DNA from: an uncultured Nitrososphaerales archaeon
GTDB lineage: Archaea; Thermoproteota; Nitrososphaeria; Nitrososphaerales; JACAEJ01
Reading direction: 5' to 3'
DNA: 63,463 nucleotides
NCBI GenBank assembly: GCA_938091495.1
Contig: CALLJF010000021.1
Span: 1 to 63,463 of the forward strand
How positions within the stretch are numbered: position 1 is the stretch's first letter; each line of letters begins with the position of its first letter. Positions 10,589-44,619 of the stretch are shown here, in pieces. A model generated the notes under the pieces. It made no database searches, was not told the origin of the DNA, and saw only the letters and a list, made by a program, of their open reading frames with translations. The position numbers were made by a program, and so were the translations under genes.

Positions 10589-12085
10589 TCATTCTATCTG
10601 AGCCTTTATTATCATAAAAACTGGCCCTCTTAAGTCAATCCTTTTGTTCCTGCTTGTAATAAATCGTAACGCATCTTCTTTCACCTTTATATTAAGCTCT
10701 CCCGATGTGCTGATCATAGCCCTCTTCATAAAGAACTCTCTATTCCCTAATTCTATGGCTTCTTCTATACCATTGGCCACAAATGCTGCTAAAGAATCTA
10801 CATACCTTATCCCAGTTGGTACTCCATGTTCCCTTGCATTCTTTATCAATTCACTACTTGATAATTCTTTATCTTCTTTTGGAATCCCTAAGATGTCTCC
10901 ATTGTAAACTACTATTTCGTTGAAGGCTGCTCGCCCTAAAAGTTTTTTTCCTACTTCATTTTGAATTAGCTTTACTATTACTCTTCTTCCAAGAATTTTG
11001 CCATCATACGCAGTATACTCAAAGGGGCTAGGAGCATCCCCATAAATTTCACAAGCTTTAATGATAGCAGCTTGTATTTCCTTGCCTTGTTCAGTTCTAG
11101 GAATCTTATCTATGGTAATTAAAGAAGCTATCTCTGAATCAGATAGCTCCAACTCAGCGTAGAATTGAGGATAGACTAATTTGCGAATGTCTGAGAAACC
11201 ATAGATGGCCATCGTCAATCTCTCAGCTCCTAGACCCACGTTTAAAACTGGATGCCTTATTTCATACTTTTCAAGAACAGCATTATCATAAATCCCAAAA
11301 TCTGCAACTTCGACCCAATCCTTTTGGCTTTTTGTTCTTATAAAGACTTCAGTTTCTGTATCCTTCTCATAGTAACTAGCACTTCTTTTCTTTTTGACAC
11401 ACTTTATCTCCTCGATTCCAAAAGGCTTTAGCAACCCTTCAGCAACGCTCTTTGCATCCTCTAAGCTCAGTTCCTCATTCATTATAACACTTGAGGCTGA
11501 ATGATAGCACCTAAGATGAGTTGCATCTAGAGTTTGTTCCCTTCGAAAGCAGACATCTATAGAAAAGAGCTTTATAGGAAGCTCTCTACCTTGAAATTCT
11601 TTTAAAGTTAAGAACCATCCTGATGTCATGTGGCTTCTAAGAGTAAGATTGGTAGCAATGGCTCTTTTCTGCTTTAGTTCAGGAAAGGCGCTTAATATAA
11701 TCGAAGCTTTATCTTCGTCTATTGAAAGAGCGTCAGCAAGCCTAGGAATTAGATCCTCCCCATCGAATATCCCCTTTTTATAATCGTGGAAGATCTTCTG
11801 TAATGCTATCTTTTTCTCATGTTCAAGGGTGAATCCGATCTTCTTAAGGAGATCAAGTTTATCTTGGCTAATCCCTATATCAGGTCTAGGGAGAGTTGCG
11901 AGATAGAAGCATCTGTCTAGTATAGTCGGAGCCTCGTTTCCCCATTGCTTGTAAATCTCTTTTTCCTCAATGAAGATAGGATTGTAGACTTCTTTGAAGC
12001 CTAGATCAAGATAAGCATGCCTTAGCTTATCCATGACTTCTGAAAGGGGATGCTTTTCGGCCCTTCCTTGCTTTATAGTCAACAA
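10589..12085 (-). CDS. sepS: O-phosphoseryl-tRNA(Cys) synthetase (SepRS)
   Basis: HPL..V..KLR.AY..LGF.EV.NP, LDRCFYLA.LPRPDIG, TLRSHMTSGWF, FSID.CFRREQ..DATHL..YHSAS and NVGLGAERL motifs. Confidence 0.93.
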   Translation of the reverse strand: MLTIKQGRAEKHPLSEVMDKLRHAYLDLGFKEVYNPIFIEEKEIYKQWGNEAPTILDRCFYLATLPRPDIGISQDKLDLLKKIGFTLEHEKKIALQKIFHDYKKGIFDGEDLIPRLADALSIDEDKASIILSAFPELKQKRAIATNLTLRSHMTSGWFLTLKEFQGRELPIKLFSIDVCFRREQTLDATHLRCYHSASSVIMNEELSLEDAKSVAEGLLKPFGIEEIKCVKKKRSASYYEKDTETEVFIRTKSQKDWVEVADFGIYDNAVLEKYEIRHPVLNVGLGAERLTMAIYGFSDIRKLVYPQFYAELELSDSEIASLITIDKIPRTEQGKEIQAAIIKACEIYGDAPSPFEYTAYDGKILGRRVIVKLIQNEVGKKLLGRAAFNEIVVYNGDILGIPKEDKELSSSELIKNAREHGVPTGIRYVDSLAAFVANGIEEAIELGNREFFMKRAMISTSGELNIKVKEDALRFITSRNKRIDLRGPVFMIIKAQIE

Positions 12086-12244
12086 TATTACCTTCCCTGT
12101 GATGAACCTATTTTCTAGGATAATAAATTTATAAAAATGGCATAAATATATTTGACGTATAGGTAACGTCTAAGAAAGGCATGAGCTATGGGAATAAACA
12201 TATAAGTAAGCCATATTTTCTTGATTCATAAGTAGGTATAGGGA

Positions 12245-12634
12245 TTGCGAACACCATGTGAAATCGTGGTTAAGTATATGTTACCTGCCTTCCGCTCTTA
12301 TGTGGCCAAAGTTCTTATCAACGAATACCATCTCTCTCAAGTGATCGTGGCAAAGCGTCTAGGGACTACTCAAGCTGCGATAAGTCATTACATGGCGTCA
12401 AAAAGAGGGAACAAAAAGCTAGTCCAATTTGAAAGTGTGCCTTTGATGAAGGATATGGCACGAGAAGTGGCAAGGAGAATAGCCAGTGGAAAGTACTCTC
12501 CTGTGGATGTTCTGCCATACTTTTGTAAAATGTGTAAAGCCTTCAGAACCCATGATGTGCTCTGCGTTTTACATAAAGACCTTGTAGTCCTTCCTAGCGA
12601 ATGTGATGTATGTCCTCAACTGGAGCATCTCTAA
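12245..12634 (+). CDS. HTH transcriptional regulator with Cys-rich C-terminus (COG2522-like)
   Basis: PCEIVVK..LPAFRS.VAK.L..EY.LSQ..VAK.LGTTQAAISHY; C-terminal CKMC..C.LH..CDVC. Confidence 0.8.
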   Translation: MRTPCEIVVKYMLPAFRSYVAKVLINEYHLSQVIVAKRLGTTQAAISHYMASKRGNKKLVQFESVPLMKDMAREVARRIASGKYSPVDVLPYFCKMCKAFRTHDVLCVLHKDLVVLPSECDVCPQLEHL

Positions 12635-12729
12635 GAAGTTCGAATATAAGACTTACTAGCTTTTTTAGTCTTGACACAAAGTTTATAGATGCTTATCTTA
12701 TGCCAAGATCTTGGACAAAAACTTTCAGA

Positions 12730-12822
12730 GCCGGGGTGGCCGAGTGGTTAGGCGGTGGGCTGCAGACAACTTAACGCAAAGCTGGGACCCGCTTTATGCA
12801 GGTTCAAATCCTGCCCCCGGCT
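12730..12822 (+). tRNA. tRNA-Cys(GCA) #1 with an approx. 21-nt intron at 37/38 (12766-12786)
   Basis: Acceptor GCCGGGG/CCCCGGC, U73, anticodon stem GTGGG/CCCGC, loop CT-GCA-G..A, T-arm GCAGG TTCAAAT CCTGC; relaxed BHB (3 of 4 central pairs). Confidence 0.88.
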
Positions 12823-12887
12823 TTTATGCTAAAAATAATATTTCCTTTACAAATATGATGAATTAAAAGGGCAATATCGCTCTTGAA

Positions 12888-14435
12888 TCAACCTATGCTT
12901 CCTAGAAGTTCTGAAATATATGTTGATGCGCTAGATGCCATTAGCCCTGGGTATATGCCTAATATCAAAGCAAGAGCAGCAAGGATCATTATAGGTACAA
13001 TCATTATCATAGGCCCTTCGTTTGCATGCATCGTTTTCTCTGTAGGTTGACCATAAAAGACTCTTCTAACAGTCCATAAACCATAGCTGGCAGTCAATAC
13101 AGATGCAACTATGGCTAAAGATGTTATCAGCACTCGAATTGAGTTTGGCTCTAGGAGATGACTAAAGCCTTGAAGAGCTGTATACATGGAACCTGTAAAT
13201 ATGTATAGCTCAGCCCAGAAGCCTATTATGTAAGGAAAGCCCATCAACCCAAGAAAGCCTATCAGCGTGGCTATAGCTGTATAAGGCATCTTTGCTGCAA
13301 GGCCGCCTAGCTCTTTTATACTCCTAGTCTTAAACTCGTGTATCAAAACTCCTGAGACCATGAAGAGTACAGCCTTTCCTAGACCATGACTGACATAGAG
13401 TAATACAGCACCAACTAATCCTATAGTTGAAACTGAAGCTATGCCGAATAGCATATAACCCATCTGACTTATGCTTGAGAATGCGAGGAGCCTCTTTATA
13501 TCATCTTGAGCTAAGGCCATGTATCCTCCGTAGGTCATGGTCACCAAGGCTAGAACTGACAGTATTAGCATGAACTGTGGTGTTGAGGCTTTAACAACTG
13601 CTGGGAATCCTGTGTAGACTATTCTTATGGCAGCGTATCCTCCTATTCCTATCATGGCAGGTGAAAGGAGAGCGCTTATTGGTGTAGGAGCTTCAGCATG
13701 GGCATCTGGAAGCCATGTATGGAGAGGGAATATAGCCATCTTCACGAACAGACCTAATAGCATTGCTACAACTATGGCAATTTGAACACCTAACTCTATA
13801 CCTACCATGCCTTGAGATACTTCGAATATTTCAAAGGTATTTGCTATGAAGCCAGTGGCAACTATACCAGCAAGCAGAGAAAGTGCGCCTGCCTCTGTGA
13901 ACATGAAGTACTTGAAGGCTATCTTTTCTCTCAACCCTGTACCCCAGACTCCTATCAAAGCCCATGATGGTATCAACATTAGTTCGAAGAACAGGAAGAA
14001 GGCAGCAAGGTTTGTGACAAGGACAGTTCCTATCATCCCAGATGCATATAGAAGGTATAATGCGAAGTATTGACCTAGTGCATGCTCATGCTCCATGTAT
14101 TTTACAGAGTATATTGAAATGAGAGTGCAAAGTATGGATATGATAAGAGCTATAGGTGTGCTGAGACCGTCAGCCCTCAAAGTAAAGCTACCTAGGCTTA
14201 AACTTCCAATTTTGGGAAGCCATGAATAAGATGCCTCTATAGCCTCTAAACTTGGCTCTAAGAATAGCCTTAATTGAATATATCCTATGAGAATAGTTGA
14301 GTAAAGCAAGATTACTGATGACAACCAACCAGTTTTCTCCTTAAGGCGATTGCCAAGGACTAAAGCCAAAACAGAGAACGCAGCCGGTACTATTATCGAT
14401 TGGAAAAGAATGAAGCTATTATCTTCTATTATCAT
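12888..14435 (-). CDS. nuoM: Complex I/Fpo antiporter-like subunit M
   Basis: FFLFFELMLIP, KMAIFPLHTWLPDAHAEAPTPISALL and HGLGKAVLF motifs. Confidence 0.9.
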   Translation of the reverse strand: MIIEDNSFILFQSIIVPAAFSVLALVLGNRLKEKTGWLSSVILLYSTILIGYIQLRLFLEPSLEAIEASYSWLPKIGSLSLGSFTLRADGLSTPIALIISILCTLISIYSVKYMEHEHALGQYFALYLLYASGMIGTVLVTNLAAFFLFFELMLIPSWALIGVWGTGLREKIAFKYFMFTEAGALSLLAGIVATGFIANTFEIFEVSQGMVGIELGVQIAIVVAMLLGLFVKMAIFPLHTWLPDAHAEAPTPISALLSPAMIGIGGYAAIRIVYTGFPAVVKASTPQFMLILSVLALVTMTYGGYMALAQDDIKRLLAFSSISQMGYMLFGIASVSTIGLVGAVLLYVSHGLGKAVLFMVSGVLIHEFKTRSIKELGGLAAKMPYTAIATLIGFLGLMGFPYIIGFWAELYIFTGSMYTALQGFSHLLEPNSIRVLITSLAIVASVLTASYGLWTVRRVFYGQPTEKTMHANEGPMIMIVPIMILAALALILGIYPGLMASSASTYISELLGSIG

Positions 14436-14439
14436 GTCA

Positions 14440-16545
14440 TCACACCAGAACCATATAAACCAGTATCAAAAGCAAAATTATTCCAGCTATCATTCCTATG
14501 ACATTATAGTTCAGGAGTCCTGTGTGTGTTCTTCTGAAACGGTTAGAGAAGCCTCTTACAGCATTTGCCAATACATAGTTGAACTTGTCTATGCCACCAA
14601 TCTCTATATGCTTCAAAGCCCAGTTACTGAAGGATATGGTCGGATACACGAATACCTTGTAAAAGAAGGCATTGACATACCATCTTCTGAATAAAAAGTT
14701 CCATAAGGACTTTAAAACTCCTTTAGATCCAACCAGTTTGGCTGGGTCTGGGGATCTTCTGATATATAGCTTATAGGCGATGAAGGCGCCTATGGCAAGG
14801 ACAGTCAAAGATGTTCCTATGGTTATGATAACTGCTAGCTCTTGTGGCAATGCTCCTTCAGTTGCCAATTCTGCTGCCAATAGAGTTGAAGAATGCTCCA
14901 TTCCTAGCAGTCTGCTTAGGTAACTTTCGAATGTATGCTCGAGCCATCCTCCAAAGCCGCCTAATGGGAGTAAAGTAATGGCACCTATGCCAAAGAGTAC
15001 TGTTGCAACGGCCAAAATAGAGTACGGTATCCACATGACCTTTGGGGCTTCATGAACATGATGTCCTTCGTGTTCAAGTTCATGAATATGCTTGCTCTTC
15101 TTGCCTAAAAATGTCAAAGAGAGCATTCTGACGCTATAAAAGGCAGTTATGGCTGCTGTTATGGCAGCTAGTGCAAACATGATCGGTTGTCCAGCCAATA
15201 GAGTAGATTCTAATATGAGGTCTTTGCTCCAGAAGCCACTGAATAGTATAGGAACACCCATCAGAGAGAAGGCGGTTAGAGTCATGCTCCAAAATGTTAT
15301 TGGCATCTCTTTCCTTATCCCACCCATATGATGCAGAAACCTTGATTCAACAGCGTGAATTACAGCTCCCGCAGTCAAGAATAGGGCTGCCTTGAATATA
15401 GCATGGCTCATGAGATGAAAAACCCCTGCTGTATACCCTATGAAGAATTCGAAAGTGGTCCCAGCAACCCCAAGGGCTAGCATCATGTATCCAAGCTGAC
15501 TAACCGTTGAGTAAGCAAGGACCTTCTTTATTTCATTAGATGTTATAGCCTGGGTGCCAGCTACAAAGGCTGTTATAACGCCTATCCATGCAACAACATA
15601 GAAGAAGGAACCCATCTCTGGATAGAATTTTGAAGCTACATACATTATGGGGAATAACCTGCCTACTAAGTATACGCCTGCTTTAACCATCGTTGCTGCA
15701 TGTATTAAAGCGCTAACAGTAGCGGGGCCTGCCATGGCATCTGGTAACCACTCCATGAGAGGTAGTTGGGCTGATTTGCCTATAGGACCACCAAAGAGCA
15801 GAATAGCCGCCGGAACCAGAATCCACATGAATTCATGAGGCAAGTGCTCAACCTTCTCGATCAATTCCATGTAGCTTAGCGTGCCAGTAAAGGCTACTAT
15901 AATTACAATGCCTATCAAAAGGCTTATGTCCCCGATTCTAGTAGTTATGAAAGCCTTCATCCCACAGTGTGAAGGTGGATAAGCTTCTGGAGGTTCGCCT
16001 ACCCAAGTCTTAAGATAATCTTCTTTAGCATCCCTATACCAGAAGCCTATCAAGGCATAACTACAAAGCCCTACCCCTTCCCATCCAAAGAGAGTTTGAA
16101 CGAGATTCTCCGACATAACAAGCAGGAGCATGTTTCCTATGAAAAAGTTCATAAAGAACCAGTATCTAGTCAGACCTGATTCTCCTTTCATATAACCAAG
16201 AGAGTAAACCATTATCAGGAAGCTTATCACAGCTACAACATTTGCCATTATTATGCTGAGCGGGTCTACCAGAACGCCAAACTCGATCTTCGATAATACT
16301 GGAAATCCTTCTAACTCTATCCAAGGTAAGACTTCCCATTTAGGTAATTCTTCTACGCTAAATAGCAATGGTATCAGCATTATAGTCATTGAAGCAGCTA
16401 GGAAAGAGAATAGAACAGCTCCATAATCCCTCAACCTCGGATTTATCTTAGCCAACAATGGAGTTAGGAAAGCCCCGATCATGGGAAAGAGCCAAGATAA
16501 CCAAGCAGGTATCGTTTCTATTCCTACTGTAGGTACTATTGCCAA
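14440..16545 (-). CDS. nuoL: Complex I/Fpo subunit L
   Basis: GWEGVGLCSYALIGFW, GKSAQLPL..WLPDAMAGPATVSALIHAATMVKAGVY, long C-terminal helix. Confidence 0.93.
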   Translation of the reverse strand: MAIVPTVGIETIPAWLSWLFPMIGAFLTPLLAKINPRLRDYGAVLFSFLAASMTIMLIPLLFSVEELPKWEVLPWIELEGFPVLSKIEFGVLVDPLSIIMANVVAVISFLIMVYSLGYMKGESGLTRYWFFMNFFIGNMLLLVMSENLVQTLFGWEGVGLCSYALIGFWYRDAKEDYLKTWVGEPPEAYPPSHCGMKAFITTRIGDISLLIGIVIIVAFTGTLSYMELIEKVEHLPHEFMWILVPAAILLFGGPIGKSAQLPLMEWLPDAMAGPATVSALIHAATMVKAGVYLVGRLFPIMYVASKFYPEMGSFFYVVAWIGVITAFVAGTQAITSNEIKKVLAYSTVSQLGYMMLALGVAGTTFEFFIGYTAGVFHLMSHAIFKAALFLTAGAVIHAVESRFLHHMGGIRKEMPITFWSMTLTAFSLMGVPILFSGFWSKDLILESTLLAGQPIMFALAAITAAITAFYSVRMLSLTFLGKKSKHIHELEHEGHHVHEAPKVMWIPYSILAVATVLFGIGAITLLPLGGFGGWLEHTFESYLSRLLGMEHSSTLLAAELATEGALPQELAVIITIGTSLTVLAIGAFIAYKLYIRRSPDPAKLVGSKGVLKSLWNFLFRRWYVNAFFYKVFVYPTISFSNWALKHIEIGGIDKFNYVLANAVRGFSNRFRRTHTGLLNYNVIGMIAGIILLLILVYMVLV

Positions 16546-16550
16546 CTACA

Positions 16551-18098
16551 TCAACCTCCTATTAACCCTAACAACGATTTAGTGGCCACTTCAGCAAAGC
16601 CCATTATTTCGAAGGGCCACAACCCTAATATGACAGTTATCAAGCCCAATATAACCACAGGCAATACCATTAAGATTGGCACTTCGTGTGCTCTTTCAAC
16701 TTTTGGCTTTGGCGCTCTCAACATAAGGCGCTGCATAAGCCATAAATAATAAGTTGCTGCGAAGATAGCATTTAGCACTACTAGACTCGTAGTCACGACC
16801 ATGAAAGTGTTGCCAGGTACTGTGAAACCAGCAAGTATTATGAATAGCTTGCTCCAGAAGCCACTAAGAGGTGGGACGCCTGCTAATGTCAATAATCCTA
16901 ATGAGAAAGAAGTTCCTGTCCAAGGCATCTTTTTCCCAGCGCCTTCTAGATCAACTAGATCTCTAGTCCCAGCTTCGTGTATGAAACAACCAGCACCAAG
17001 AAAGAGAAGCCCCTTGCCTATTGCATGATTGAAAATGTGAAATATTGCTCCCATTGTGGCTAGTGTGGCTATGCTGTAGCCAGCTGCACCATATATATTC
17101 AGAGCATATGCACCGATGCCAAAGCCAAAGACGATGTATCCTATGTTGACTATGCTCGAGAAAGCAAGAAGGCGTTTTATGTCTCTTTGAAGTAGAGCCA
17201 TGAAGTTGGCTACGCTTAACGTTATGATACCAAATATCACTAACGTTGTACCGAAATCAAAGGCAATTGGGTCAAATATTGTGAAAAGGATTCTTGCAAT
17301 AACGTAAACCCCTGCCTTTATGACCACTCCGGATAACATGGCGCTTATCCCACTTGGAGCTGCTGGGTGAGCATCCGGAAGCCAGAAGTGAAATGGCACT
17401 ATCGATGCTGTCACACCAAAGCCTGCTATTATGGCAACGATGATAAGATATAATATCTGTAAAGGAATCTTCAATGTAGGAATGATGGCCGCAAGTTGAG
17501 ATATATTCAAAGTTCCCGTCAATCCATAAAGAATGGACATGGCATAAAGAGCAGTTAAAGAGCCAATGGTACTCATAACAAGGTACTTAAAGCTGGCTTC
17601 TATCGGCTCCCAACGGTACTTCCTGAATGCTACTAAAGCATAGGAAGAAAGACTCATGGCCTCCCAAAAGATGAACAAATTGAACAAATCTCCTGCAAAA
17701 GAAATCCCAACCAAACCTGCAACAAGGACCATAAGCAAAGAGTAATACTTGTCTAAACCTGTATCATCTTCCATATATTTGACTGAATATATTGAGACAA
17801 ATAAGCCCAAAAGGCAGAATAGAAGAGCCATAAAGACGCTAAATTGATCTACAAAGAAAGATACGCCTCCCATCTTTGGCTCGTAGGGGCTTAAGAAGTA
17901 AGTCAGTTGCCCTTGCCTTTGAACTTCTTCATAGATGCCTAACAAGCTGTATAGGGATAAGCCGAAAATGATAACGGCAAAGGCATCTCTTACCTTCTCA
18001 AACTTTAAGGCTCTGCCAAAATACTCTATTAGTGGAGTTAGTAGCGCTCCTGTGAAGAGTATGATTATGGGCTGTAAAATTATCCATGATTCAGGCAT
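16551..18098 (-). CDS. Complex I/Fpo antiporter-like subunit (N position; MrpD/NuoN-like)
   Basis: DLFNLFIFWEAMSL.SY.L and PFHFWLPDAHPAAPSGISAMLSG motifs; lies between K and L. Confidence 0.85.
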   Translation of the reverse strand: MPESWIILQPIIILFTGALLTPLIEYFGRALKFEKVRDAFAVIIFGLSLYSLLGIYEEVQRQGQLTYFLSPYEPKMGGVSFFVDQFSVFMALLFCLLGLFVSIYSVKYMEDDTGLDKYYSLLMVLVAGLVGISFAGDLFNLFIFWEAMSLSSYALVAFRKYRWEPIEASFKYLVMSTIGSLTALYAMSILYGLTGTLNISQLAAIIPTLKIPLQILYLIIVAIIAGFGVTASIVPFHFWLPDAHPAAPSGISAMLSGVVIKAGVYVIARILFTIFDPIAFDFGTTLVIFGIITLSVANFMALLQRDIKRLLAFSSIVNIGYIVFGFGIGAYALNIYGAAGYSIATLATMGAIFHIFNHAIGKGLLFLGAGCFIHEAGTRDLVDLEGAGKKMPWTGTSFSLGLLTLAGVPPLSGFWSKLFIILAGFTVPGNTFMVVTTSLVVLNAIFAATYYLWLMQRLMLRAPKPKVERAHEVPILMVLPVVILGLITVILGLWPFEIMGFAEVATKSLLGLIGG

Positions 18099-18100
18099 AT

Positions 18101-18415
18101 TCACCACCTCAACCTACTCGTTTTCTTAAGATCGATCGAGCCATAGTGTCTATATGCTTGAATGGTTATCATCAAAGCAAGGCTGGCTACGGCTGCTCCG
18201 ATGACTATCGATATTGCTACAAAGTACTGAGCTAAAGGTAGCAAATCTCCATCTAATATTGTGAAAACTAGGAAGTTTAGATTAACACCTGCTGTTACAA
18301 TTTCAAGACCTATAATAGTTCTTATCATATTTCTTCTCACAACAATCCCATAAAGTCCGATTATGTAAAGAAATATTGCAGTTATAGCATATAATGTGAA
18401 GTCAGGAGTACTCAT
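18101..18415 (-). CDS. nuoK: Complex I/Fpo subunit K
   Basis: IGLYGIV.RRNMIR.IIGLEI...GVNLN; three TM segments. Confidence 0.88.
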   Translation of the reverse strand: MSTPDFTLYAITAIFLYIIGLYGIVVRRNMIRTIIGLEIVTAGVNLNFLVFTILDGDLLPLAQYFVAISIVIGAAVASLALMITIQAYRHYGSIDLKKTSRLRW

Positions 18416-18417
18416 AT

Positions 18418-18717: not shown

Positions 18718-18719
18718 CT

Positions 18720-27903: not shown

Positions 27904-28006
27904 TGGCGGGCTCGCGGGGACTTGAACCCCGGACCTACAGCTTAGGAGGCTCGGCCAAGAGTCTGCCGCGCTTTCCGGTATTATATCCATGCTGCGCTAC
28001 GAGCCC
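27904..28006 (-). tRNA. tRNA-Arg(CCT) with encoded CCA and two non-canonical introns (D-loop about 20/21 at 27973-27984; 30/31 at 27950-27962)
   Basis: Acceptor GGGCTCG/CGAGCCC, G73-CCA, T-arm CGGGG TTCAAGT CCCCG. Removing the inserts restores D-stem GCGC/GCGC and anticodon stem GCAGC/GCTGT; BHB central helix CGGC/GCCG for the second intron. Confidence 0.9.
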
Positions 28007-34738: not shown

Positions 34739-34794
34739 CAACTGAAGCTGATGACAAACCTTATCTTAAGGGGGATAAATCAAACTTGATAAAA

Positions 34795-35859: not shown

Positions 35860-37039
35860 TTCTCTTCACTTTTTTTAACTTCTTAACTCTCTTTTCTTCT
35901 CTAGGTGGCTCGCTGTATTTTACCTTAATTTCTTCTAATCTTTTTTGAAGTTTCTGCTCGATTTCTTTCTCTTCGCTCCCTCTGAAGGCATCGATTCTCG
36001 CTGCTATGGCTATCTTTGTCGCTAATGATCTTGCTATTTTGCCTCTCTGCCATTTTGGAGCGGAATGGACGGCTGGATGTTGAAAGATAATGCCATGTTT
36101 TGGAGGCCTTGTACCAGTGCGCAAAGCCCTGAAGAGGGCCTTCTCTGCCCCAAGAACTTGTATAGTGCTAGCAGGTAGCATAGCTAACTTCTCCAAACCT
36201 CCTGCCTTGGCCATCAGTCTAGCTCCTATGGTAGCTCCTACTATAGATGTTATGTTTGGTGCTATCGTTCTCATATTTCTCTCAACATAGCCTGAAAGCT
36301 TATCTCTAAGAGAATCCATTTTTATCACTTCTTCAGCTATTGCCAATATTCTCCTCAAATCCTCTTCACGAAGATCTCCTCCCTTAGATTTTTCAGTTGA
36401 GATAGATACGGCCTCAGCCTTCTTAATAGAGAACCCAAACTTTACAAGCTCTTCTTCTCTTATATTCTTCCTCTCACCAAATTTGTTAACGAATTTTGAA
36501 TACGTTAACGGATCGTCGATTAGAGAGCTGAGTTCAGGAAAATGTAATCCATACCACTCTTTTACTCTTGTAGCAAGAATATTCAAGGTTTTGTCCACTT
36601 CATCGAGAGCCTGTATGGCTTCTATTACATGGAGGTCTGGCCTTGCTGAAACTTCTCTTAACTTGATTTCAGATAAAGTTATGGCAAAATTCCTAATTTT
36701 GTCTCTAGCATCATCCTCAGAGCTTGCTAAGCCTGATTTTATCATGAGTTCTATCTTTCTTGACCTAAGCACATCCCTCAAATCACTTGGGAACTCTTCA
36801 ACTTTGAAACCTTCTCTGCCTAGCTCTTTCCTCAACTCGTCTTCGACTATCACCAATGCCTCCAAATCATTCATAGAATTTGATAAAATTTCCTTAAATT
36901 CTAAAGGCAATTCTCCTCTTCTTAACCTCTCATAATTCTCAACCTTTGCATCCTCTGGATACTTCCATGTTGAAACAACGTTAAACTTCTCATCTAATAT
37001 CATTGCTCCAATCTCAGACAAGTACAATATGCCCCTCAT
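35843..37039 (-). CDS. nop5: C/D box RNP protein Nop5 (Nop56/58)
   Basis: EWYGLHFPEL, APN...VGA..GARL and PASTIQVLGAEKALFRAL....PPKHG motifs. Confidence 0.97.
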   Translation of the reverse strand: MRGILYLSEIGAMILDEKFNVVSTWKYPEDAKVENYERLRRGELPLEFKEILSNSMNDLEALVIVEDELRKELGREGFKVEEFPSDLRDVLRSRKIELMIKSGLASSEDDARDKIRNFAITLSEIKLREVSARPDLHVIEAIQALDEVDKTLNILATRVKEWYGLHFPELSSLIDDPLTYSKFVNKFGERKNIREEELVKFGFSIKKAEAVSISTEKSKGGDLREEDLRRILAIAEEVIKMDSLRDKLSGYVERNMRTIAPNITSIVGATIGARLMAKAGGLEKLAMLPASTIQVLGAEKALFRALRTGTRPPKHGIIFQHPAVHSAPKWQRGKIARSLATKIAIAARIDAFRGSEEKEIEQKLQKRLEEIKVKYSEPPREEKRVKKLKKVKRSGKKK

Positions 37040-37232
37040 CTTCTCTATACCCTCAAGATAGAGAATATGGGTTCAATATAAAATGTTACGGGTACTCTGG
37101 AATTGGATTTATACCATCGCGCTCATTTTTTAAATCAACGAAACTCTTCATGCTTATCTCGATAAGACTAGTGATTGAGAGTAAGCGCAGAAAGGTTATG
37201 AATTTCTTCATGCTTCCGCAGTGTATAAATAA

Positions 37233-37835
37233 GTGAAAAACTTACTATTACATTTGCCAGGGGTGGAGTTTATCTCCCAAATAGCAGAACGCGACATCAA
37301 AATCTTAAAGGCAATATATGAAATGGAAAAGGCTACACCAGAAGAGCTAGCCAAAAAACTGGGCGAACCTTATACAGTTTCAGATTTGACCGCCTATCTG
37401 AACCGTTTAGAGATGGAGAACCTTTTAGAAAAAGTTCAAGAAGAACCATTGACCTATAAATTATCTGGCCTAGGCCTCATAGCCGTAGGCGCCTTACCTG
37501 AAAAAGCGAGAAGAGTTTTTTTGTTGGTATCCTCAGACAAATCCTTCTTTTTTTACACTGGAGTAGGACCAGAAAACTTCACAGGAATCATCGCTCGCAG
37601 TCTCTCAGACTTCAGAGAGAAGGTTAAAACAGTGGATGTGAAATCATTAGAGTTTCACATTCCAAGGCATGACATAGAAAGATGGGTTAGAGATGTGTTA
37701 GAAGATGAAGGACTAGCTAAAGAAATTGAACAGATCAGGCAGCTAAAACTTGAGGGTGAGCCGCTGAGAAATCGCATTTTAAATACGGTGGATTTCCGTA
37801 TCAAAGAACTAACTTCTGTCTTCAAATTCGCGTAG
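37233..37835 (+). CDS. Winged-HTH protein fused to a DUF5752-like domain
   Basis: N-terminal wHTH pattern; C-terminal FFFYTG.G...ARSL.DF.EKVK.V...SLEFH...D.E.WV.DVL.D..LA..I. Confidence 0.7.
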   Translation: MKNLLLHLPGVEFISQIAERDIKILKAIYEMEKATPEELAKKLGEPYTVSDLTAYLNRLEMENLLEKVQEEPLTYKLSGLGLIAVGALPEKARRVFLLVSSDKSFFFYTGVGPENFTGIIARSLSDFREKVKTVDVKSLEFHIPRHDIERWVRDVLEDEGLAKEIEQIRQLKLEGEPLRNRILNTVDFRIKELTSVFKFA

Positions 37836-38039
37836 TACCAAATGAGGTGTGCTTTGCTGTAGCAGCTTTTTACTCCTAGAGCCGTATCTTTAAGCAATTA
37901 TGAGACTTGTTAAATTCATAATATTTCCAAGATGCCTAGATCAAATTTGCAATATTCTGAAATTCAAAGACTATTAAATAAGCCATAACGAACTAACCGA
38001 AAAACTTTAATTTTTATCAATCCTATAGACGCAGGAGAC

Positions 38040-38330
38040 ATGCAGACTGCAAAACCTTGTTCTCCCACATGTGCATTCTTTAGATGTGGTCGCAAAGCCT
38101 TACAGATAAGGGGTTCTAGGCCTTGGTGTAGCTTTACTAATGATTACTGTGATGTCAAACTTTGTGCATTTTTGCAGTGTGTGAGAGGTAAGCTGATTTC
38201 AGGAAACATGTGTGGGCTGATGGTTAAAAGGTTAACCATCGATAAGCTACGCCCTGAAGATTTCAGTGTTGAAATAAAGCTCAAAGGAAAGCTTGCAAAG
38301 CGTTTGGGCGAAGATAGAGATATAGTGTAA
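38040..38330 (+). CDS. Conserved Cys-rich hypothetical protein
   Basis: CSPTCAFFRC, C.FTND.C...C.F..C....L...G.C; likely metal-binding. Confidence 0.7.
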   Translation: MQTAKPCSPTCAFFRCGRKALQIRGSRPWCSFTNDYCDVKLCAFLQCVRGKLISGNMCGLMVKRLTIDKLRPEDFSVEIKLKGKLAKRLGEDRDIV

Positions 38331-38381
38331 AAATAAAAAAGGCCGTGTTGGCACATAGCCTACGGCATCACAGGATACTGG

Positions 38382-38636
38382 TTAAATTACTTGCCCAACT
38401 GCATAGCTTGGTTTAACTTGGGTTATCTTTATCTTGACACTATCTCCTTGCTTTGTATTTGGCACGAAGATAACGAAGCCTTGAACCCTTGTCAAACCAT
38501 CTCCTCGTCTACTTATCTCCGATATAGTGATGTCCAGTTCATCACCAACCTTAACAGGTTTAGGCCTGAAGAAGGTTCTTGGAAACTTTCGACGTGGAAA
38601 ACCTTGCTGTTGGGGTTGTATCTCCTCTTCAGACAA
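38382..38636 (-). CDS. Single TRAM-domain RNA chaperone
   Basis: PKPVKVGDELD.TI.EISRRGDG..RVQGFVIFVP..K.GD.VK.KI..V. Confidence 0.93.
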   Translation of the reverse strand: MSEEEIQPQQQGFPRRKFPRTFFRPKPVKVGDELDITISEISRRGDGLTRVQGFVIFVPNTKQGDSVKIKITQVKPSYAVGQVI

Positions 38637-38706
38637 TTACTGCGTCCTTCCTTTCTTGATCGAATTTGCGTCATGCCTATATTTAAGCCTTATTTTAAAT
38701 CTATTG

Positions 38707-39498
38707 ATGTCAAAGTCGGACAATTATGTTAAAGCTGGAGACAATGTAGTAATCTACTTTACGGATAAGAAGAAGTGGTTAGTAAGAGCTAAAGCTGATG
38801 AAAAGCTTCATACACATCTAGGATACATAGAATTAGGCTCTACTATAGGAAAAGAGTACGGCTCATCTGTAAAAACAAGCTTGGGAGAGAGATTTTGGAT
38901 ACTCAAGCCAACCATAATTGATCTAATCCTTAAGGCTGAGAGGAAGACCCAGATAGTTTATCCTAAGGATCTTGGAATGATAGCAAGTATGACTGGCATA
39001 TCTTCTGGCTTCACAGTTGTAGAAGCTGGCACTGGTAGTGGTGTGCTTACAACTTTCCTTGCCAATTTGGTAAAGCCTGACGGTCATGTATTCTCATATG
39101 AGATTAGGCCTGAATTCATAGAGATGGCGAGAAAGAACATAGACAGGGCTGGTCTGAGTGATTTTGTCACCATTAAGCAGAGTGATGCAAAGAAAGGCTT
39201 TGATGAGAAAGATGTGGACGCTGTGATAATAGACGTAGGCGATCCTTGGACTTTGGTAAGAGTTGCATGGGAGGCTCTAAAAGGTGGAGGAGTCATTGCT
39301 TCTGTATCTCCAACAATGAACCAGGTTGAGAAACTAGTGGCTGAGCTTGCTAATGTTGGTTTTGTGAAAATAGAAAGCTTAGAATTGCTATTAAGAAATC
39401 TTGAAGTAAGAACTGGTATGACAAGGCCTTCTATGAGGATGATAGGACATACTGCATATCTTACATTCGCAAGAAAGATAATAATGCATGAAGTGTAA
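38707..39498 (+). CDS. trmI: tRNA (adenine57/58-N1)-methyltransferase
   Basis: R.TQIVYPKD, VVEAGTGSG.LT, YEIRPEF, V...P...QV and R....M..HTAYL motifs; start refined to ATG 38707. Confidence 0.93.
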   Translation: MSKSDNYVKAGDNVVIYFTDKKKWLVRAKADEKLHTHLGYIELGSTIGKEYGSSVKTSLGERFWILKPTIIDLILKAERKTQIVYPKDLGMIASMTGISSGFTVVEAGTGSGVLTTFLANLVKPDGHVFSYEIRPEFIEMARKNIDRAGLSDFVTIKQSDAKKGFDEKDVDAVIIDVGDPWTLVRVAWEALKGGGVIASVSPTMNQVEKLVAELANVGFVKIESLELLLRNLEVRTGMTRPSMRMIGHTAYLTFARKIIMHEV

Positions 39499-39530
39499 AG
39501 GTTAAATCCATATCATAACATCGCTTAAAT

Positions 39531-40178
39531 GTGAACGAATTGGACAGGTTAGAAATGATTGAAGATACAATTTTTATCCTGTACCTATCTCCTTTACTGA
39601 TCAATGGTTTATATGCTCTTTACCTCTCATTTGCTCTAAACTTGCCTCCATCCGATGTTTATCTTGGAGTTGCCAATAATATTATCATCTTACTAGCAAG
39701 CGTACTAGTAGTACTCATAGCGTTAGTAATGGAGGTAAGGATCAGTCCCAAAGACACTAGGATCAAGAAGATAGAAGAAAATGTCTCAAGAATGAGAATT
39801 CTGGCATTCTTATTCATAATTTTATCTCTCGTTTCTGTTTTCGTTGCAAGTGGCTACTCTTCTGACATGTTCAAAACTCTTGACCTTTATTTGGAAGGAA
39901 GATATGCTATACTATACCCTCTTTTTCTACTAGCTTTGTCTTTCGTTTTATCTCCTTTAATAACGCATTTCTTCAAATTCTCTTTGATAATCTTCGAGAT
40001 AATTCCTATCGTTTTGATGACAGCATCTCCTTTGTTGCTCTATATCCTTTGGCGCATGGGATTGTCCTACAGTATCATTTTCTCCATTTCTCTTCTAACG
40101 TTCATAGCAGGTGTTGCCTTATTCTTGTATGGCTTAAGAGTTGAGGGAAAGAGTAAAACTGCATCTATATCATCTTAA
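39531..40178 (+). CDS. Multi-pass membrane protein, unknown function
   Basis: About six hydrophobic segments; no recognised motif. Confidence 0.7.
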   Translation: MNELDRLEMIEDTIFILYLSPLLINGLYALYLSFALNLPPSDVYLGVANNIIILLASVLVVLIALVMEVRISPKDTRIKKIEENVSRMRILAFLFIILSLVSVFVASGYSSDMFKTLDLYLEGRYAILYPLFLLALSFVLSPLITHFFKFSLIIFEIIPIVLMTASPLLLYILWRMGLSYSIIFSISLLTFIAGVALFLYGLRVEGKSKTASISS

Positions 40179-40217
40179 AATTTAGTTAATGCATTTGTTC
40201 AAAGTAAGCAGTTTGTC

Positions 40218-40598
40218 TTAATCTTTACTTAATCTTACAACATCTTCTAAAAGAATCTCTAAAAAAGACAAGTATTCAGAATCCTGAAATTCGATAACAT
40301 CGTAGGCATTCATTTGCTTTGCCATTCTTAACGCTAATATATGGTAGCAGACATCATCCTTTCCACTGAGCACTCGATAATAAAAGTGCTTGCATGAGCA
40401 GTAAGGTTGTGAATCGTCGACTAGCTGATCTCCTTCTTTTCCAACGACTGTCCATATTTCACGCTTGCTTGGAGAGAACTTATGGAGCTTTACGCTCTTA
40501 TCTTCCATAAGTTTTAGAGCCTTTTCTAACTTTTTGCCATAGCAACCATATTTGGCATAGAATTCTTCGTAATTCGATTTAGAGATCAATGGAACCAA
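40218..40598 (-). CDS. SWIM zinc-finger protein
   Basis: YCSCKHF...VCYHILA (CxC..CxH). Confidence 0.85.
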   Translation of the reverse strand: MVPLISKSNYEEFYAKYGCYGKKLEKALKLMEDKSVKLHKFSPSKREIWTVVGKEGDQLVDDSQPYCSCKHFYYRVLSGKDDVCYHILALRMAKQMNAYDVIEFQDSEYLSFLEILLEDVVRLSKD

Positions 40599-40700
40599 TC
40601 ATCCATCAATAGTATGTAAATATATGCTCAATTAAATGAAATTTTAAGATCGTGATGATAAAGCAAAACAAATAAGCATAGCCTTTTTAGCCTTAAATTA

Positions 40701-40785
40701 GCCCCGGTAGCTCAGCTGGAAGAATTTATCCAATAGCGATTGCCTTGTAAGCAGTAGGTCGCGGGATCGAGACCCGCCCGGGGCT
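40701..40785 (+). tRNA. tRNA-Thr(TGT) with a 12-nt intron at 22/23 (40723-40734)
   Basis: Acceptor GCCCCGG/CCGGGGC, anticodon arm ATTGC CT TGT AA GCAGT; BHB central helix TGGA/TCCA with AGA/ATA bulges; T-loop ATCGAGA. Confidence 0.9.
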
Positions 40786-40824
40786 TTAAAAAGAAATCTT
40801 ATATAACAAACAGTCAAACCTAAA

Positions 40825-41169
40825 ATGAAAATGAGTTACAAAGAAGGTTTCATGATAGTTACAACGCCCAGTGTTCCAGGCTATCATATAAAGAAAGTTT
40901 TAGGAATTGTCTCAGGCCTGACTGCAAGGACAAGAGGAGCGGGTGGAAAGTTTGTTGCTGCTATACAATCCATACTAGGAGGGGAAGTATCTGCCTTCGC
41001 TTCAGAGCTTGAGAAGGCGAGAATCGAAGCTATAGAAAGGGCTAAAGAGAATGCAAGGAGAATGGGCGCAAATTCAATAGTAGGTCTTGATATAGAGACT
41101 TCAGAGGTTTTTGAAGGGGTTGTAGTGATCTCTGCAACAGGCACAGCAGTAATAATAGAGCCAGAATAA
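40825..41169 (+). CDS. YbjQ/UPF0145-family protein
   Basis: MIVTT..VPGY.I..VLGIV.G, LE.AR.EA.ER....A...GAN..VG and ATGTAV motifs. Confidence 0.93.
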   Translation: MKMSYKEGFMIVTTPSVPGYHIKKVLGIVSGLTARTRGAGGKFVAAIQSILGGEVSAFASELEKARIEAIERAKENARRMGANSIVGLDIETSEVFEGVVVISATGTAVIIEPE

Positions 41170-41185
41170 CCTAGTAATTGAAATC

Positions 41186-41995
41186 TTAACTCTCCGTCCA
41201 TGTATCTAATGGCTTAAAAGTTTCCAAAAGCTTGATCCTCATCCCATCTACTGCTGCTATGGTATCAACTCCTGTAACCTTTGCCATCCTCTCAGCCTCC
41301 TTTTCAGGAGGGGCCCTTAACATCTTAACACCGAAATGTGTGATCAAAACCTTTTTTGGAGATATAATCTTGACCATCTTAATTGCATCGTCTATGCATA
41401 GATGATAAGGAAATTTTTCGTTGCCAGGTCTTAAAACACTTAGAATCAAGAGATTAGGATGTTCGGCGCCTTTTATTATTTCTTCGTTGAACTCTGTATC
41501 TGGAAAGTAGGATATTGGGTGCTTTCCATCATCCAATCTAAAGCCTATAGCATAAGGGTCTGTATGAAGGGTCTTTAAGGCTTTTATCTTGATCTTATCA
41601 TAAACTATAGTATCGCCAGCTATCATAGATTTGACGACTTTAGGTAGGCGCTTATGATAAATAGAAATGGCAGGATGCCCCAAATCGTTTACATGCTCCA
41701 AAACGCTCTTCGCTCCAACCAATAGCCCTCTCTTTACATTCGCTCCTCTTGTGGCTGCTTCTATGTAGATTTCAGCATCAGTGTAATGGTCTGGATGCCT
41801 ATGAGAGATTAATACGCCTTTTACTGAGAAGGGATTCAGACCCATTTGATTAAAGTGAGATATAGAGCCAGGACCAGGGTCTATTACGAATATGCCATCA
41901 TCTATGATAAACGCTAGTCCGCCAGTTCTTCTCTCTTGCTTTATGGTAACCATCCTGCTTCCTCCGCTACCTAATACGATTAGTTCTCTTATCAT
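41186..41995 (-). CDS. Metallo-beta-lactamase-fold hydrolase
   Basis: VLGSGG, IDPGPGS, ISHRHPDH, YFPDT and ITHFG motifs. Confidence 0.9.
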   Translation of the reverse strand: MIRELIVLGSGGSRMVTIKQERRTGGLAFIIDDGIFVIDPGPGSISHFNQMGLNPFSVKGVLISHRHPDHYTDAEIYIEAATRGANVKRGLLVGAKSVLEHVNDLGHPAISIYHKRLPKVVKSMIAGDTIVYDKIKIKALKTLHTDPYAIGFRLDDGKHPISYFPDTEFNEEIIKGAEHPNLLILSVLRPGNEKFPYHLCIDDAIKMVKIISPKKVLITHFGVKMLRAPPEKEAERMAKVTGVDTIAAVDGMRIKLLETFKPLDTWTES

Positions 41996-42076
41996 TACAA
42001 ATGTATTGTCTGAATCTATTATTAGCCTTTTAGAAAATAGAAACTGTTATTTTATGGCGCATAGAATAATATTTAA

Positions 42077-42149
42077 GCCGAGGTGACGGAATCTGGTTAC
42101 GTACCCGCCTGCAGAGCGGGTTATAGGGGTTCAAATCCCCTCCTCGGCT
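42077..42149 (+). tRNA. tRNA-Cys(GCA) #2, intronless
   Basis: Acceptor GCCGAGG/CCTCGGC, U73, anticodon arm CCCGC CT GCA GA GCGGG, T-arm AGGGG TTCAAAT CCCCT. Confidence 0.93.
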
Positions 42150-42231
42150 CTCATATACGGACTCAAATAATCTGCTCTCCTTGCCTTTGTGCCGTAAGAA
42201 TTATAAATGAAAGAATTTTAAAATATCAATC

Positions 42232-42603
42232 ATGAAGATCGAACTTTTGTATATCTTGGATTGTCCTTGGTGTGTAAAAACTAAAGAATTAATTAGAGAA
42301 AGCTTGAAAGAACTTAAAATAAAGGCTAATATCGAAGAGATTCTGATCGATACCAGTGAGAAAGCAAGAAAATATCATTTTGTTGGCTCACCGACTATCA
42401 GGATTGACGGGAGAGATGTTCAGGAAGAAGTTAGCAAGGGCAGGTGTTTGTCTTGTGAGGAAATTGCTGAACATACTCAAGGAGCGACAGAATTTGTAAA
42501 ACAAGAATGTGGTTGTGGATGCAGGATTTATTTTTATAAAGGCAAACAGTATCCTTATCCGCCAAAAGAAATGATTAAAGAGGTTATTAAGAAACATATG
42601 TAA
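42232..42603 (+). CDS. Thioredoxin-fold protein (DUF2703-like), CPWC motif
   Basis: MKIELLY..DCPWC, F.GSPTIRIDGRDV and CRIY...PP..MI motifs. Confidence 0.75.
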   Translation: MKIELLYILDCPWCVKTKELIRESLKELKIKANIEEILIDTSEKARKYHFVGSPTIRIDGRDVQEEVSKGRCLSCEEIAEHTQGATEFVKQECGCGCRIYFYKGKQYPYPPKEMIKEVIKKHM

Positions 42604-43083
42604 TTTTTAGGCATGCTTTGGCAAACGCCAAGCGAAACGAAGTTTTGCTTACCCTCCTCCCAATTGGGTCGTATAACATGCTCTGACAGTTTTTGAAACC
42701 GGATTCGCGTATACCTGCTCAGACCCAAGGCTCTCATAAAAAACCAATCAGAACCAAGGATGATAACTTACAATCGTATTCTTGGAGATAACCCTTCCCT
42801 TGACAAGCCGGTACAAGGCAGTTAGATGGTCTCTCACTCCTCTATCAATTAAGAAGTGCTTGGTTACAAATTCCTTTCCTCTCTTGTCCATCTTTTTTGC
42901 CTCCTTTAGATGTTTTAACAGGTAGAGAATTTTTCTGCAGCCTCTTGAACTGTAGAGATGAGAAAGTCATTCCAATCATCTTTTATCTGTAATGTCATCC
43001 CTCCCTACTCTTCCTGCTCCAACTAACTGGCTGTATCTCGATATTGGAGGCAGAGGTGGGAGGCCTATGGCTTTCATTTGTCA
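42604..43083 (-). pseudogene. Degraded gene remnant (fragmented coding-like frames)
   Basis: Short coding-like pieces in shifting frames (e.g. KILYLLKHLKEAKKMDKRGKEFVTKHFLIDRGVRDHLTALY..., MRALGLSRYTRIRF...); family not recognised. Confidence 0.35.
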
Positions 43084-43209
43084 TTTACTTCAATTTTACC
43101 TATTTTAAATTGGTACTCAAACTCTTTTGATTCAAGCAGAATTCCACAAAGATTATTTAAAAAACATACTTACAGATTAAACTGATTCCATCAAAGATTT
43201 GTGATAAAG

Positions 43210-44619
43210 ATGACTATAAGAGTCTATAATTCACACACAAGAAAGAAAGAAGATTTTAAACCTATTAGCGATAAAAAGGTAAGAATGTTTGTGTGCGGTC
43301 CAACTGTTTACGATCTCTCACATTTAGGGCATGCTAGGACTTATATTGCCTATGATGTAATTGCGAGATGGCTTCGCTACAGAGGATTTAACCTATTCTA
43401 CTTAATGAACATAACTGACATTGATGATAAGATCATCAAAAGAGCGAGAGAGAAAAATGAAGACCCATTAAAGTTAGCGCGAAGATTCGAAGAATCTTTC
43501 TTCCAAGATATTGCATCTTTGCAAATAGATACCATCGATGTTTATGCTCGTGCATCGGAGCATATGCCAGAAATCATAGATCAAATTGAGAGGCTGATCG
43601 AGAAGGGGTTTGCATACATTACTCAGACAGGGGTTTATTTTGATGTTTCTAAATTCGAGGATTACGGAAAATTATCTCATCAAGATCCTGAAGAGTTGAA
43701 GAGGCATAGAATCGAGCCCGATCCAAGCAAAAGAAACAAACAGGATTTTTCCCTTTGGAAGATGAGGAAAGAAGGAGAGCCTTATTGGAATTCTCCTTGG
43801 GGGGAGGGGAGACCAGGATGGCACATAGAAGATACTGCCATTGCTGAGAAGTATCTTGGTCAGCAGTATGATATCCATGGCGGCGGTATTGATTTAATCT
43901 TCCCTCATCATGAAGCAGAGATAGCCCAGATGGAATCCATCTCAGGGAAAAAACCCATGGTTAGGTATTGGCTCCATACAGGCTTTTTAAAAGTAGAAGG
44001 AAAGAAGATGGCAAAATCCTTAGGAAACTTTATCACGATTCAAGACGCATTAAAAAGATACGATGTAGAAGCATTGAGATTGTTCTTTTCATCAACTCAT
44101 TACCGTAGCCCTATAGATTTTCATGAGAAAAAAATAGAACAGGCCAAGACAGCTTTAGAAGCCCTTTATGAGACTATTAATAGCATTAGGAGATCAGTTA
44201 AGAGCATGGGTGATTTAACAGAGGATGAGAAGGCTTTAGAAAGAATGATAGAAGAGAGTAGAAGAAGATTTGGAGAAGCCATGGATAATGATTTTAATAC
44301 TCCCTTAGCATTATCCTGTTTGTTCGATTTGGCTAAATATGTGAACAGATTATTTGATACACAGAAGAGCATCAACAAAAGATTGGCTGACTATCTCATT
44401 AATACCTTTAGAGAGTTGGGAGGAATAATAGGCATACTTCAAAAAGAAGAGGTAAAAGAAGAACTTCCAGAGGAGTTAAGACTGCTTATAGAGGAAAGAG
44501 AGAGGGCAAGAGAAAGGAAGGATTGGAAGACTGCTGATGAAATAAGAAAAAAATTAGAAGAACTTGGAATAATTCTTGAGGATACCTCACAAGGCGTGAA
44601 ATGGAAAAAGAAGATATAG
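43210..44619 (+). CDS. cysS: Cysteinyl-tRNA synthetase (class I)
   Basis: CGPTVYD.SHLGHAR, GRPGWHIED, DIHGGG.DL.FPHHE.EIAQ and KMAKSLGN motifs. Confidence 0.97.
   Translation: MTIRVYNSHTRKKEDFKPISDKKVRMFVCGPTVYDLSHLGHARTYIAYDVIARWLRYRGFNLFYLMNITDIDDKIIKRAREKNEDPLKLARRFEESFFQDIASLQIDTIDVYARASEHMPEIIDQIERLIEKGFAYITQTGVYFDVSKFEDYGKLSHQDPEELKRHRIEPDPSKRNKQDFSLWKMRKEGEPYWNSPWGEGRPGWHIEDTAIAEKYLGQQYDIHGGGIDLIFPHHEAEIAQMESISGKKPMVRYWLHTGFLKVEGKKMAKSLGNFITIQDALKRYDVEALRLFFSSTHYRSPIDFHEKKIEQAKTALEALYETINSIRRSVKSMGDLTEDEKALERMIEESRRRFGEAMDNDFNTPLALSCLFDLAKYVNRLFDTQKSINKRLADYLINTFRELGGIIGILQKEEVKEELPEELRLLIEERERARERKDWKTADEIRKKLEELGIILEDTSQGVKWKKKI

Follow-up and report, generated by a model that had tools for sequence, protein, structure and literature searches.

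Cells that hold SepRS and SepCysS, the enzymes of the tRNA-dependent route to cysteine, together with CysRS, the enzyme of the direct route, may serve the two routes from a shared pool of tRNA-Cys or from separate pools, an issue that has been addressed biochemically so far only in Methanosarcina mazei. For this organism, isoacceptors preferred by SepRS or by CysRS have been described (Hauenstein & Perona 2008, in the form in which that work is summarized in PMC9976931 and PMC8762117). The idea of an enzyme preference has also been raised, in a 2022 review, for methanogens with unusual discriminator bases (PMC8762117), and orthogonality to the SepRS system has been proposed for methanogens with a non-U73 tRNA-Cys and a co-varying CysRS (Perona et al. 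2018, as outlined in PMC8762117). Physical linkage of tRNA-Cys with the genes for SepRS and SepCysS was reported by Mukai et al. 2017 (PMC5424206), along with the occurrence of SepRS in 'Thaumarchaeota AK59' and other TACK archaea, duplicated SepCysS, the operon tRNA-Cys–SepCysSn–SepCysS–SepRS of Ca. Bathyarchaeota BA2 and clade VII SepCysS genes accompanied by tRNA-Cys. The present analysis concerns a 63,463-nucleotide archaeal contig (contig C21, the whole of which is called the window), on which the genes for SepRS (sepS) and CysRS (cysS) each lie beside a tRNA-Cys(GCA) gene, T1 and T2, respectively.

As in M. mazei, SepRS/SepCysS and CysRS share a cell that has at least two tRNA-Cys(GCA), here from two distinct genes, and it is the tRNA core, not the anticodon or the discriminator base, that differs, to the extent that the M. 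mazei isoacceptors are described in the accounts cited. Unlike M. mazei, the host belongs to the Nitrososphaeria within the Thermoproteota, the two tRNAs are ~69% identical and each is physically paired with an enzyme gene. The link between a tRNA-Cys and the genes of the tRNA-dependent route is shared with the operons of Mukai et al. 2017, and their co-oriented form is found only in a locus from outside the family (L178) and at the SepCysS loci of one genus of the family (g4). In the window, by contrast, T1 and sepS point away from each other and SepCysS is encoded on a different contig, so that a co-oriented tRNA-Cys operon is absent, and a second tRNA-Cys is tied to cysS. With the non-U73 methanogens the system would share the property that some tRNA-Cys is preferentially served by one enzyme, and the C73 tRNA-Cys of Methanobacterium metagenome-assembled genomes (MAGs) is, like T2, found directly upstream of cysS. 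Unlike these tRNAs, both tRNAs of the window keep U73, so any discrimination has to rest on the D-arm, the stems or the tRNA core. We found no description in the literature of a SepRS system in Ca. Methylarchaceae, of both modules in one genome with diverged tRNAs that keep the canonical U73, G37 and GCA, of a three-fold pairing of tRNA and enzyme genes in one genus, or of a tRNA–cysS junction of 8-10 nt.

The sepS gene (10589-12085, minus strand) matches TIGR00470 with 569.7 bits against a cut-off of 380.65. Its product, of 498 amino acids, is a short form of SepRS that matches positions 44-533 of the 533 of the profile; all orthologues of the family start at profile position 40-45, and PF01409 and PF18006 are present in close homologues. 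Head to head with sepS, at 645 bp, lies T1 (12730-12822, plus strand; exon 1 12730-12765, intron 12766-12786, exon 2 12787-12822), which scores 51.1 bits with Rfam and is read by ARAGORN, with introns allowed, as Cys(GCA) interrupted after position 37 by an intron of 21 nt; the reading 'aca' obtained in the no-intron mode is an intron artefact. The intronless tRNA-Cys(GCA) gene T2 (42077-42149, plus strand; ARAGORN and Rfam) precedes cysS (43201-44619, plus strand; TIGR00435, 557.3 bits against a cut-off of 340) in the same orientation, at a distance of ~1.05 kb. The encoded CysRS has 472 amino acids and shows the class I motifs as HLGH and KMAKS. An earlier reading of the window from its letters (the original prediction) had placed the four genes here, and the TIGR models, Rfam and ARAGORN agree with it except at one end of cysS, for which 43210-44619 had been given: the end stands, the start does not, as the frame opens with a GTG at 43201 and the ATG at 43210 is three codons inside.

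SepCysS, the search for which had been named as a check, is encoded on another contig of the same genome (G000:C14:20209-21351; TIGR02539, 383.3 bits against 365.25). Both routes to Cys-tRNA are thus complete in the window genome; the charging with phosphoserine (Sep) and the conversion of Sep to Cys are the predicted activities of the first. A scan with a tRNA-Cys model yielded exactly two tRNA-Cys genes for this genome, with one sepS and one cysS. For a 1.39-Mb genome with one gene of each kind, the probability that one particular tRNA gene is located no more than 1.1 kb from one particular other gene is ~0.0016. As this value applies to one pairing, it is very unlikely that the two arose by chance; both pairings also recur in relatives.

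The host genome (G000) is a MAG of 1.39 Mb in 59 contigs, with 39% G+C and a completeness of 96.6%. The organism is a hot-spring archaeon of Ca. Methylarchaceae, a Nitrososphaeria lineage of the Thermoproteota, and no euryarchaeal methanogen, a point on which the Methanosarcina-like parallel of the original prediction needs correction. Hot-spring MAGs that carry the label Nitrososphaeria or Nitrososphaerales are its near relatives, together with 'Candidatus Methylarchaceae archaeon HK01M'. The family has been described as consisting of cytochrome-b-containing, methyl-reducing methanogens in the Thermoproteota, in a paper in which neither SepRS nor tRNA is mentioned (PMC9478090). The mcrA gene was found in 5 of the 10 family genomes, including G002 from the genus of the window, and a search of the 96.6%-complete assembly that contains the window found none. 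The family set used throughout consists of 10 Ca. Methylarchaceae genomes from four genera, with G007, G008 and G009 forming genus g4. Conservation of the pairings in relatives was another of the checks that had been put forward, and both are conserved across the four genera.

On the SepRS side, the enzyme is present in all 10 family genomes and in 0 of 51 genomes from elsewhere in the same GTDB order, and T1 is the divergent neighbour of sepS, at 204-870 bp, in all nine family genomes in which the arrangement is assessable. In g4 an extra copy of T1 is found ~250-370 bp upstream of SepCysS and co-oriented with it; each of sepS, SepCysS and cysS has a tRNA-Cys neighbour in this genus, with the exception of G008, in which neither cysS nor T2 was found. 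Two classes of SepCysS exist in the family, 37-39% identical to each other and both present in G009. The tRNA-linked SepCysS of g4 is 70-72% identical to that of L178 and 37-39% identical to that of the window's genus. A TTTATAG core and the A-rich segment that precedes it are kept ~45 nt upstream of all nine sepS-linked T1 genes in the four genera; in the window, the promoter-like element ACACAAAGTTTATAG (12674-12688, plus strand), of the TFB-recognition-element/TATA-box (BRE/TATA) type, is found ~43 nt 5' of T1, and elements of the TTTATAG type are putative T1 promoters. For a tRNA leader, the ~40 nt that separate the TATA-like box from T1 (12689-12729, GCTTATCTTAYGCCAAAATC...) are unusually conserved across the four genera. 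An open frame of 129 amino acids (12245-12634, plus strand) between sepS and T1 probably does not belong to the system, as it has no Pfam or NCBIfam match and relatives with a gap of 204-244 bp have no room for it. It was also considered as a counterpart of an open reading frame (ORF) of ~110 amino acids that directly precedes short-type SepRS in L178 (3596-3934) and in a second outside locus, L179 (3605-3931; 49% identity, no Pfam match), and proved unrelated; a homologue of the latter ORF was not found in the window genome.

On the CysRS side, the enzyme is found throughout the GTDB order, orthologues of T2 occur in 8 of the 10 family genomes, and in six of these eight (G000, G002, G003, G005, G007 and G009) T2 is upstream of cysS and co-oriented with it. 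The closest arrangement is that of g4, in which the ATG of cysS is found 8 nt (G009) or 10 nt (G007) past the discriminator base of T2. Co-transcription of T2 and cysS would be the simplest reading of this junction, because 8-10 nt leave no room for a separate promoter. In the genus of the window only, the gene for a thioredoxin-like DUF2703/DF-family protein (42232-42603, plus strand; NF049942, 87 bits; PF10865 and PF13192), which is missing from the g4 junction, and ~600 bp sit between T2 and cysS. The latter stretch (42604-43200) contains neither a frame of more than 60 amino acids nor an RNA-family match, its frames being of 30-60 amino acids, and a permissive Rfam scan of 42150-43250 gave no match. 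Within the last ~50 nt before cysS an A/T-rich promoter-like element is found (ATTATTTAAAAA, ~43152-43163), and in G002 and G003 the final ~80 nt of the stretch are conserved. The sequence immediately 5' of T2, at its junction with a gene for a metallo-beta-lactamase (MBL)-fold hydrolase, is conserved across genera. In G006, the cysS gene (L142, G006:C51 2792-4186, minus strand) has a single TAA in frame, at the place of the conserved His in the THYRSP motif, and a search of this 89%-complete MAG for T2 found none; this case and that of G008 could be joint losses of cysS and T2 or gaps in the assemblies.

A direct reading of T1 and T2 bears out the features that the original prediction had listed, among them the stems: both have GCA, G37 and U73, and also A59, with acceptor stems GCCGGGG (T1) and GCCGAGG (T2), G or A at position 15 and 5 or 4 nt in the variable loop, respectively; the anticodon stems differ, too. 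The distinction at position 15 is not fixed, as the T2 of G005 has G15, and the variable loop of T2 genes has 4 or 5 nt. The T2 of the window is further marked by A10:U25, G12:C23, A26 and a long D-loop. Family-wide, 19 alignment columns have no base common to T1 and T2, namely those of the pairs 5:68, 10:25, 12:23, 27:43, 29:41, 31:39, 50:64 and 51:63, position 26 and two extra D-loop bases. These fixed differences concentrate in the D-stem, base 26 and the tRNA core. In the E. coli CysRS–tRNA complex, class I synthetases contact the inner corner of the tRNA in the same D-stem and core region, and the location of the differences is therefore an argument for an enzyme preference. In the spliced cloverleaves of T1 and T2 the stem positions are paired in every sequence, with changes on both sides in 11 of 20 pairs; judged from such alignments, both paralogues are shown to be under structural selection. 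The two copies of T1 in G009 are identical, introns included (those of G007 and those of G008 differ), which indicates that T1 copies are able to homogenize; T1 and T2 nonetheless stay apart. The identity set consists of G34, C35, A36 and U73, with G37, A47 and A59 as minor elements for SepRS (PMC9976931). A47 is clear in T1 and in the T2 forms with a 5-nt variable loop, and its numbering is ambiguous in the 4-nt loop of the window T2. As a separate observation, two intronless T1-like tRNA-Cys genes, at L141 (G008:C151, 1731-1802) and at L178 (2021-2092), lack G18, their D-loops being AAUAGUUA and AGCAGUUA, and position 55 is G rather than U in them, with the T-loop UGCAAAU. The changes at G18 and U55 look like a co-varying change of the elbow contact. 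The L141 copy follows proC on a 2-kb contig and may have been mis-binned from a lineage similar to that of L178.

With respect to the origin of the two pairings, T1- or T2-type genes were not found in the other families of the order, which have mostly one top-scoring tRNA-Cys with an acceptor stem of the GGNGGGG type; among nine genomes checked, this tRNA is near cysS only in G025. The CysRS of the family is 40-46% identical to that of sister families and 58-61% identical to those of a Methanobacterium MAG and an unclassified Thermoproteota MAG. In a tree of 28 sequences chosen by similarity to the query it falls in a clade (100/99) with Methanobacteria, Bathyarchaeia, Thermoplasmata and some bacteria of the candidate phyla radiation (CPR), apart from the three sister families sampled. 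The approximately unbiased (AU) test rejects a grouping of the family CysRS with two of them (f6 and f19; −146 log-likelihood units, p-AU 1.7e-96), where the group was defined after the tree had been seen and the taxa had been selected by query similarity. Within the clade, tRNA-Cys is found directly upstream of cysS in six of six Methanobacteria loci and in one Thermoplasmata locus, and it adjoins cysS in two loci that are outside the clade or unplaced (Iainarchaeum and a Woesearchaeota MAG). Acquisition of cysS and its tRNA as a module is plausible given this recurrence. The Methanobacteria tRNAs share A5:U68 with T2, and A10:U25 is common to the tRNAs of Methanobacteria and Thermoplasmata and to T2. 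A10:U25 is no specific marker of the one CysRS clade, as it is widespread in euryarchaeal tRNA-Cys (pattern scan, among the matches listed); it speaks for T2 as a tRNA of euryarchaeal type and does not point to one donor.

The SepRS side presents a similar picture. A profile search for SepRS relatives in the named genomes returned family members only, and the nearest SepRS from outside the family, found by protein database and contig look-ups, are 52-53% identical and have a short N-terminus, too. In L178, whose SepRS is 52% identical, the cluster tRNA-Cys–SepCysS–orf112–SepRS is found, and no tRNA from outside the family bins was found to be closer to T1 than the one in this cluster (80.6%, as compared with at most 78% for tRNAs of the order). 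In its modular character the SepRS side at least equals the CysRS side, because within the order SepRS is confined to the family and the nearest outside relative of T1 is part of a SepRS operon. The original prediction had the CysRS gene and T2 acquired as a module; the CysRS clade, the AU test and the recurrence of the tRNA–cysS pair make this plausible, and what does not hold is its restriction to CysRS. The idea finds partial support for both routes, as both pairings exist elsewhere as modules, and both look like tRNA-plus-enzyme units of wider occurrence. Any direction given to a transfer of either module is one that we infer.

The explanation favoured here, with modest confidence, is that the genome has inherited two modules for Cys-tRNA formation, each with its own tRNA-Cys paralogue and with an enzyme that would prefer the neighbouring tRNA. 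The first module would consist of sepS and T1, with SepCysS encoded elsewhere and, in g4, provided with its own upstream copy of T1. SepRS would load T1 with phosphoserine, and SepCysS would convert the product to Cys-tRNA. The second module would consist of T2 and cysS, with T2 charged directly with free cysteine by CysRS; its older form was probably a single transcript, from which excision of T2 would, in g4, create the 5' end of the cysS mRNA, and in the genus of the window the inserted gene and the new promoter-like element would now part the two. The pool of tRNA-Cys would in this manner be split between T1, on which cysteine would be made from phosphoserine, and T2, which would receive free cysteine. 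The C73 tRNA-Cys that adjoins cysS in Methanobacterium MAGs fits the notion that the neighbour is the partner.

Several findings weigh against this explanation. T1 and T2 hold all the known major and minor determinants for both enzymes (A47 in T1 and in the T2 genes with a 5-nt loop), and no anti-determinant is evident in either. T2 and cysS are found on different contigs in G001 and G004. A tRNA–cysS pair is also present in a Methanosphaera MAG (L015), a genus counted among the methanogens without SepRS/SepCysS (PMC9499178); linkage is therefore possible where no discrimination is needed, and adjacency alone is no proof of dedication. No RNA sequencing run with the cysS region was found, the sepS region was met in DNA metagenomes only, and no data on expression, splicing or charging were found. 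Finally, a CysK/CysM-type cysteine synthase scores above the cut-off in the window genome. Synthesis of free cysteine is thus probably available, the tRNA-bound route is probably not the sole source of cysteine, and the idea that the SepRS route is the only source in this genome was dropped for this reason. No match of the CysK/CysM type was obtained in g4.

The most serious competitor is that the linkage is historical, the tRNAs having travelled with the enzyme genes and having been kept for dosage or by chance, and that both enzymes charge both tRNAs about equally. Besides the shared identity elements, it can draw on the tRNA–cysS adjacency as a trait of the whole CysRS clade, the Methanosphaera MAG included, and on reports of one tRNA serving both enzymes in M. 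acetivorans and in M. maripaludis. It does not easily account for the distinctness of T1 and T2 at 19 positions in four genera, without merging even though gene conversion is evidently possible (the identical T1 copies of G009), nor for the lack of a second diverged type of tRNA-Cys in the other families of the order. We regard it as possible, though on the unlikely side.

A stronger version of the favoured explanation would make T1–SepRS/SepCysS and T2–CysRS two naturally insulated pairs for one codon family in one cell, each enzyme largely rejecting the tRNA of the other, and this we consider doubtful. Equally doubtful is the corresponding proposal that rejection would be achieved through features of the D-arm and core (10:25, 12:23, 26 and the size of the D-loop) despite identical anticodon, G37 and U73. 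If true, such pairs would offer a natural template for the incorporation of phosphoserine without cross-reaction by CysRS, and a case in which a tRNA pool is divided between translation and the biosynthesis of an amino acid.

Less probable still is that T1 is tuned for the handling of the intermediate, its T-stem pairs 50:64 and 51:63 and its core lowering the binding of the elongation factor or aiding the hand-over from SepRS to SepCysS. The associated view that phosphoseryl-tRNA would in this way be kept off the ribosome, with T2 as the ordinary translational tRNA, is likewise improbable. Both T-stem pairs are among the fixed differences between T1 and T2, and in bacteria they are among those that set the affinity for EF-Tu; furthermore, the extra T1 copy of g4 stands beside the gene for SepCysS, the second enzyme of the route. 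However, the operon-linked tRNA of L178, outside the family, has a different T-stem, and for the route to supply translation, Cys-T1 still has to get to the ribosome.

That the splicing of T1 gates the tRNA-dependent route, as the original prediction had proposed, is very improbable. It is true that an intron of 16-21 nt and variable sequence interrupts all 12 T1 genes examined at position 37/38, that 11 of them keep a 3-nt bulge at the 3' splice site and a helix of 4 bp formed with the anticodon loop, and that T2 is intronless in seven of eight genomes. However, the remaining T2, that of G005, has two introns, and at least 20 of the 38 tRNA genes of the window genome are of 92 nt or more and hence bear introns (10 are of 76 nt or less), which weakens the case for a gate. 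The intron of T1 is therefore the rule in this genome and no special control point, and we know of no regulated splicing of an archaeal tRNA. The bulge-helix-bulge (BHB) motif of T1 would be of a relaxed form, because the outer helix past the 5' splice site is not conserved; the fold of the single sequence, taken by itself, is not significant. An artefact of binning or assembly that joined tRNA–enzyme pairs of different organisms, conceivable for a MAG in 59 contigs, can practically be dismissed, as the two pairs are 30 kb apart on one 63-kb contig and recur in independently assembled relatives from China and Kamchatka.

With the preference of each enzyme for its neighbouring tRNA as the favoured explanation, the family provides a clean natural case of two deeply diverged tRNA-Cys genes paired with enzymes over four genera, one genus having three such pairs, and this conserved pairing makes an enzyme-specific use of the tRNAs directly testable. 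The fixed differences amount to a short list of positions for swaps in charging assays. The 8-10 nt junction of g4 is a compact case of a tRNA and a synthetase apparently produced from one transcript. As SepRS-based systems are used to put phosphoserine into proteins, tRNAs ignored by CysRS would be of practical value. If, as the loci compared here suggest, both routes move between archaeal lineages as tRNA-plus-enzyme modules, this would bear on the evolution of cysteine coding.

The window also holds several further features. The MBL-fold hydrolase gene (41186-41995, minus strand) is divergent from T2 and weakly RNase Z-like (TIGR02651, E = 1.7e-11, far below the cut-off); a link with the processing of tRNA 3' ends would be speculation. 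The DF-family (seleno)protein encoded at 42232-42603 bears a CPWC motif. At 40701-40785 (plus strand) a tRNA with 48.9 bits in Rfam is reported by ARAGORN as Tyr(ata), an intron artefact; read by hand, it is a Thr(UGU) tRNA with an insert of ~13 nt in the D-loop, a non-canonical position for an intron, and G004 has a tRNA at the same distance from T2. A further tRNA of 100 nt (27907-28006, minus strand), presumably intron-bearing, is detected by Rfam (41.2 bits) and missed by ARAGORN. Finally, an archaeal signal recognition particle (SRP) RNA is found at 55670-56116 (121 bits), followed within 50 nt by a tRNA-Ser(GCU).

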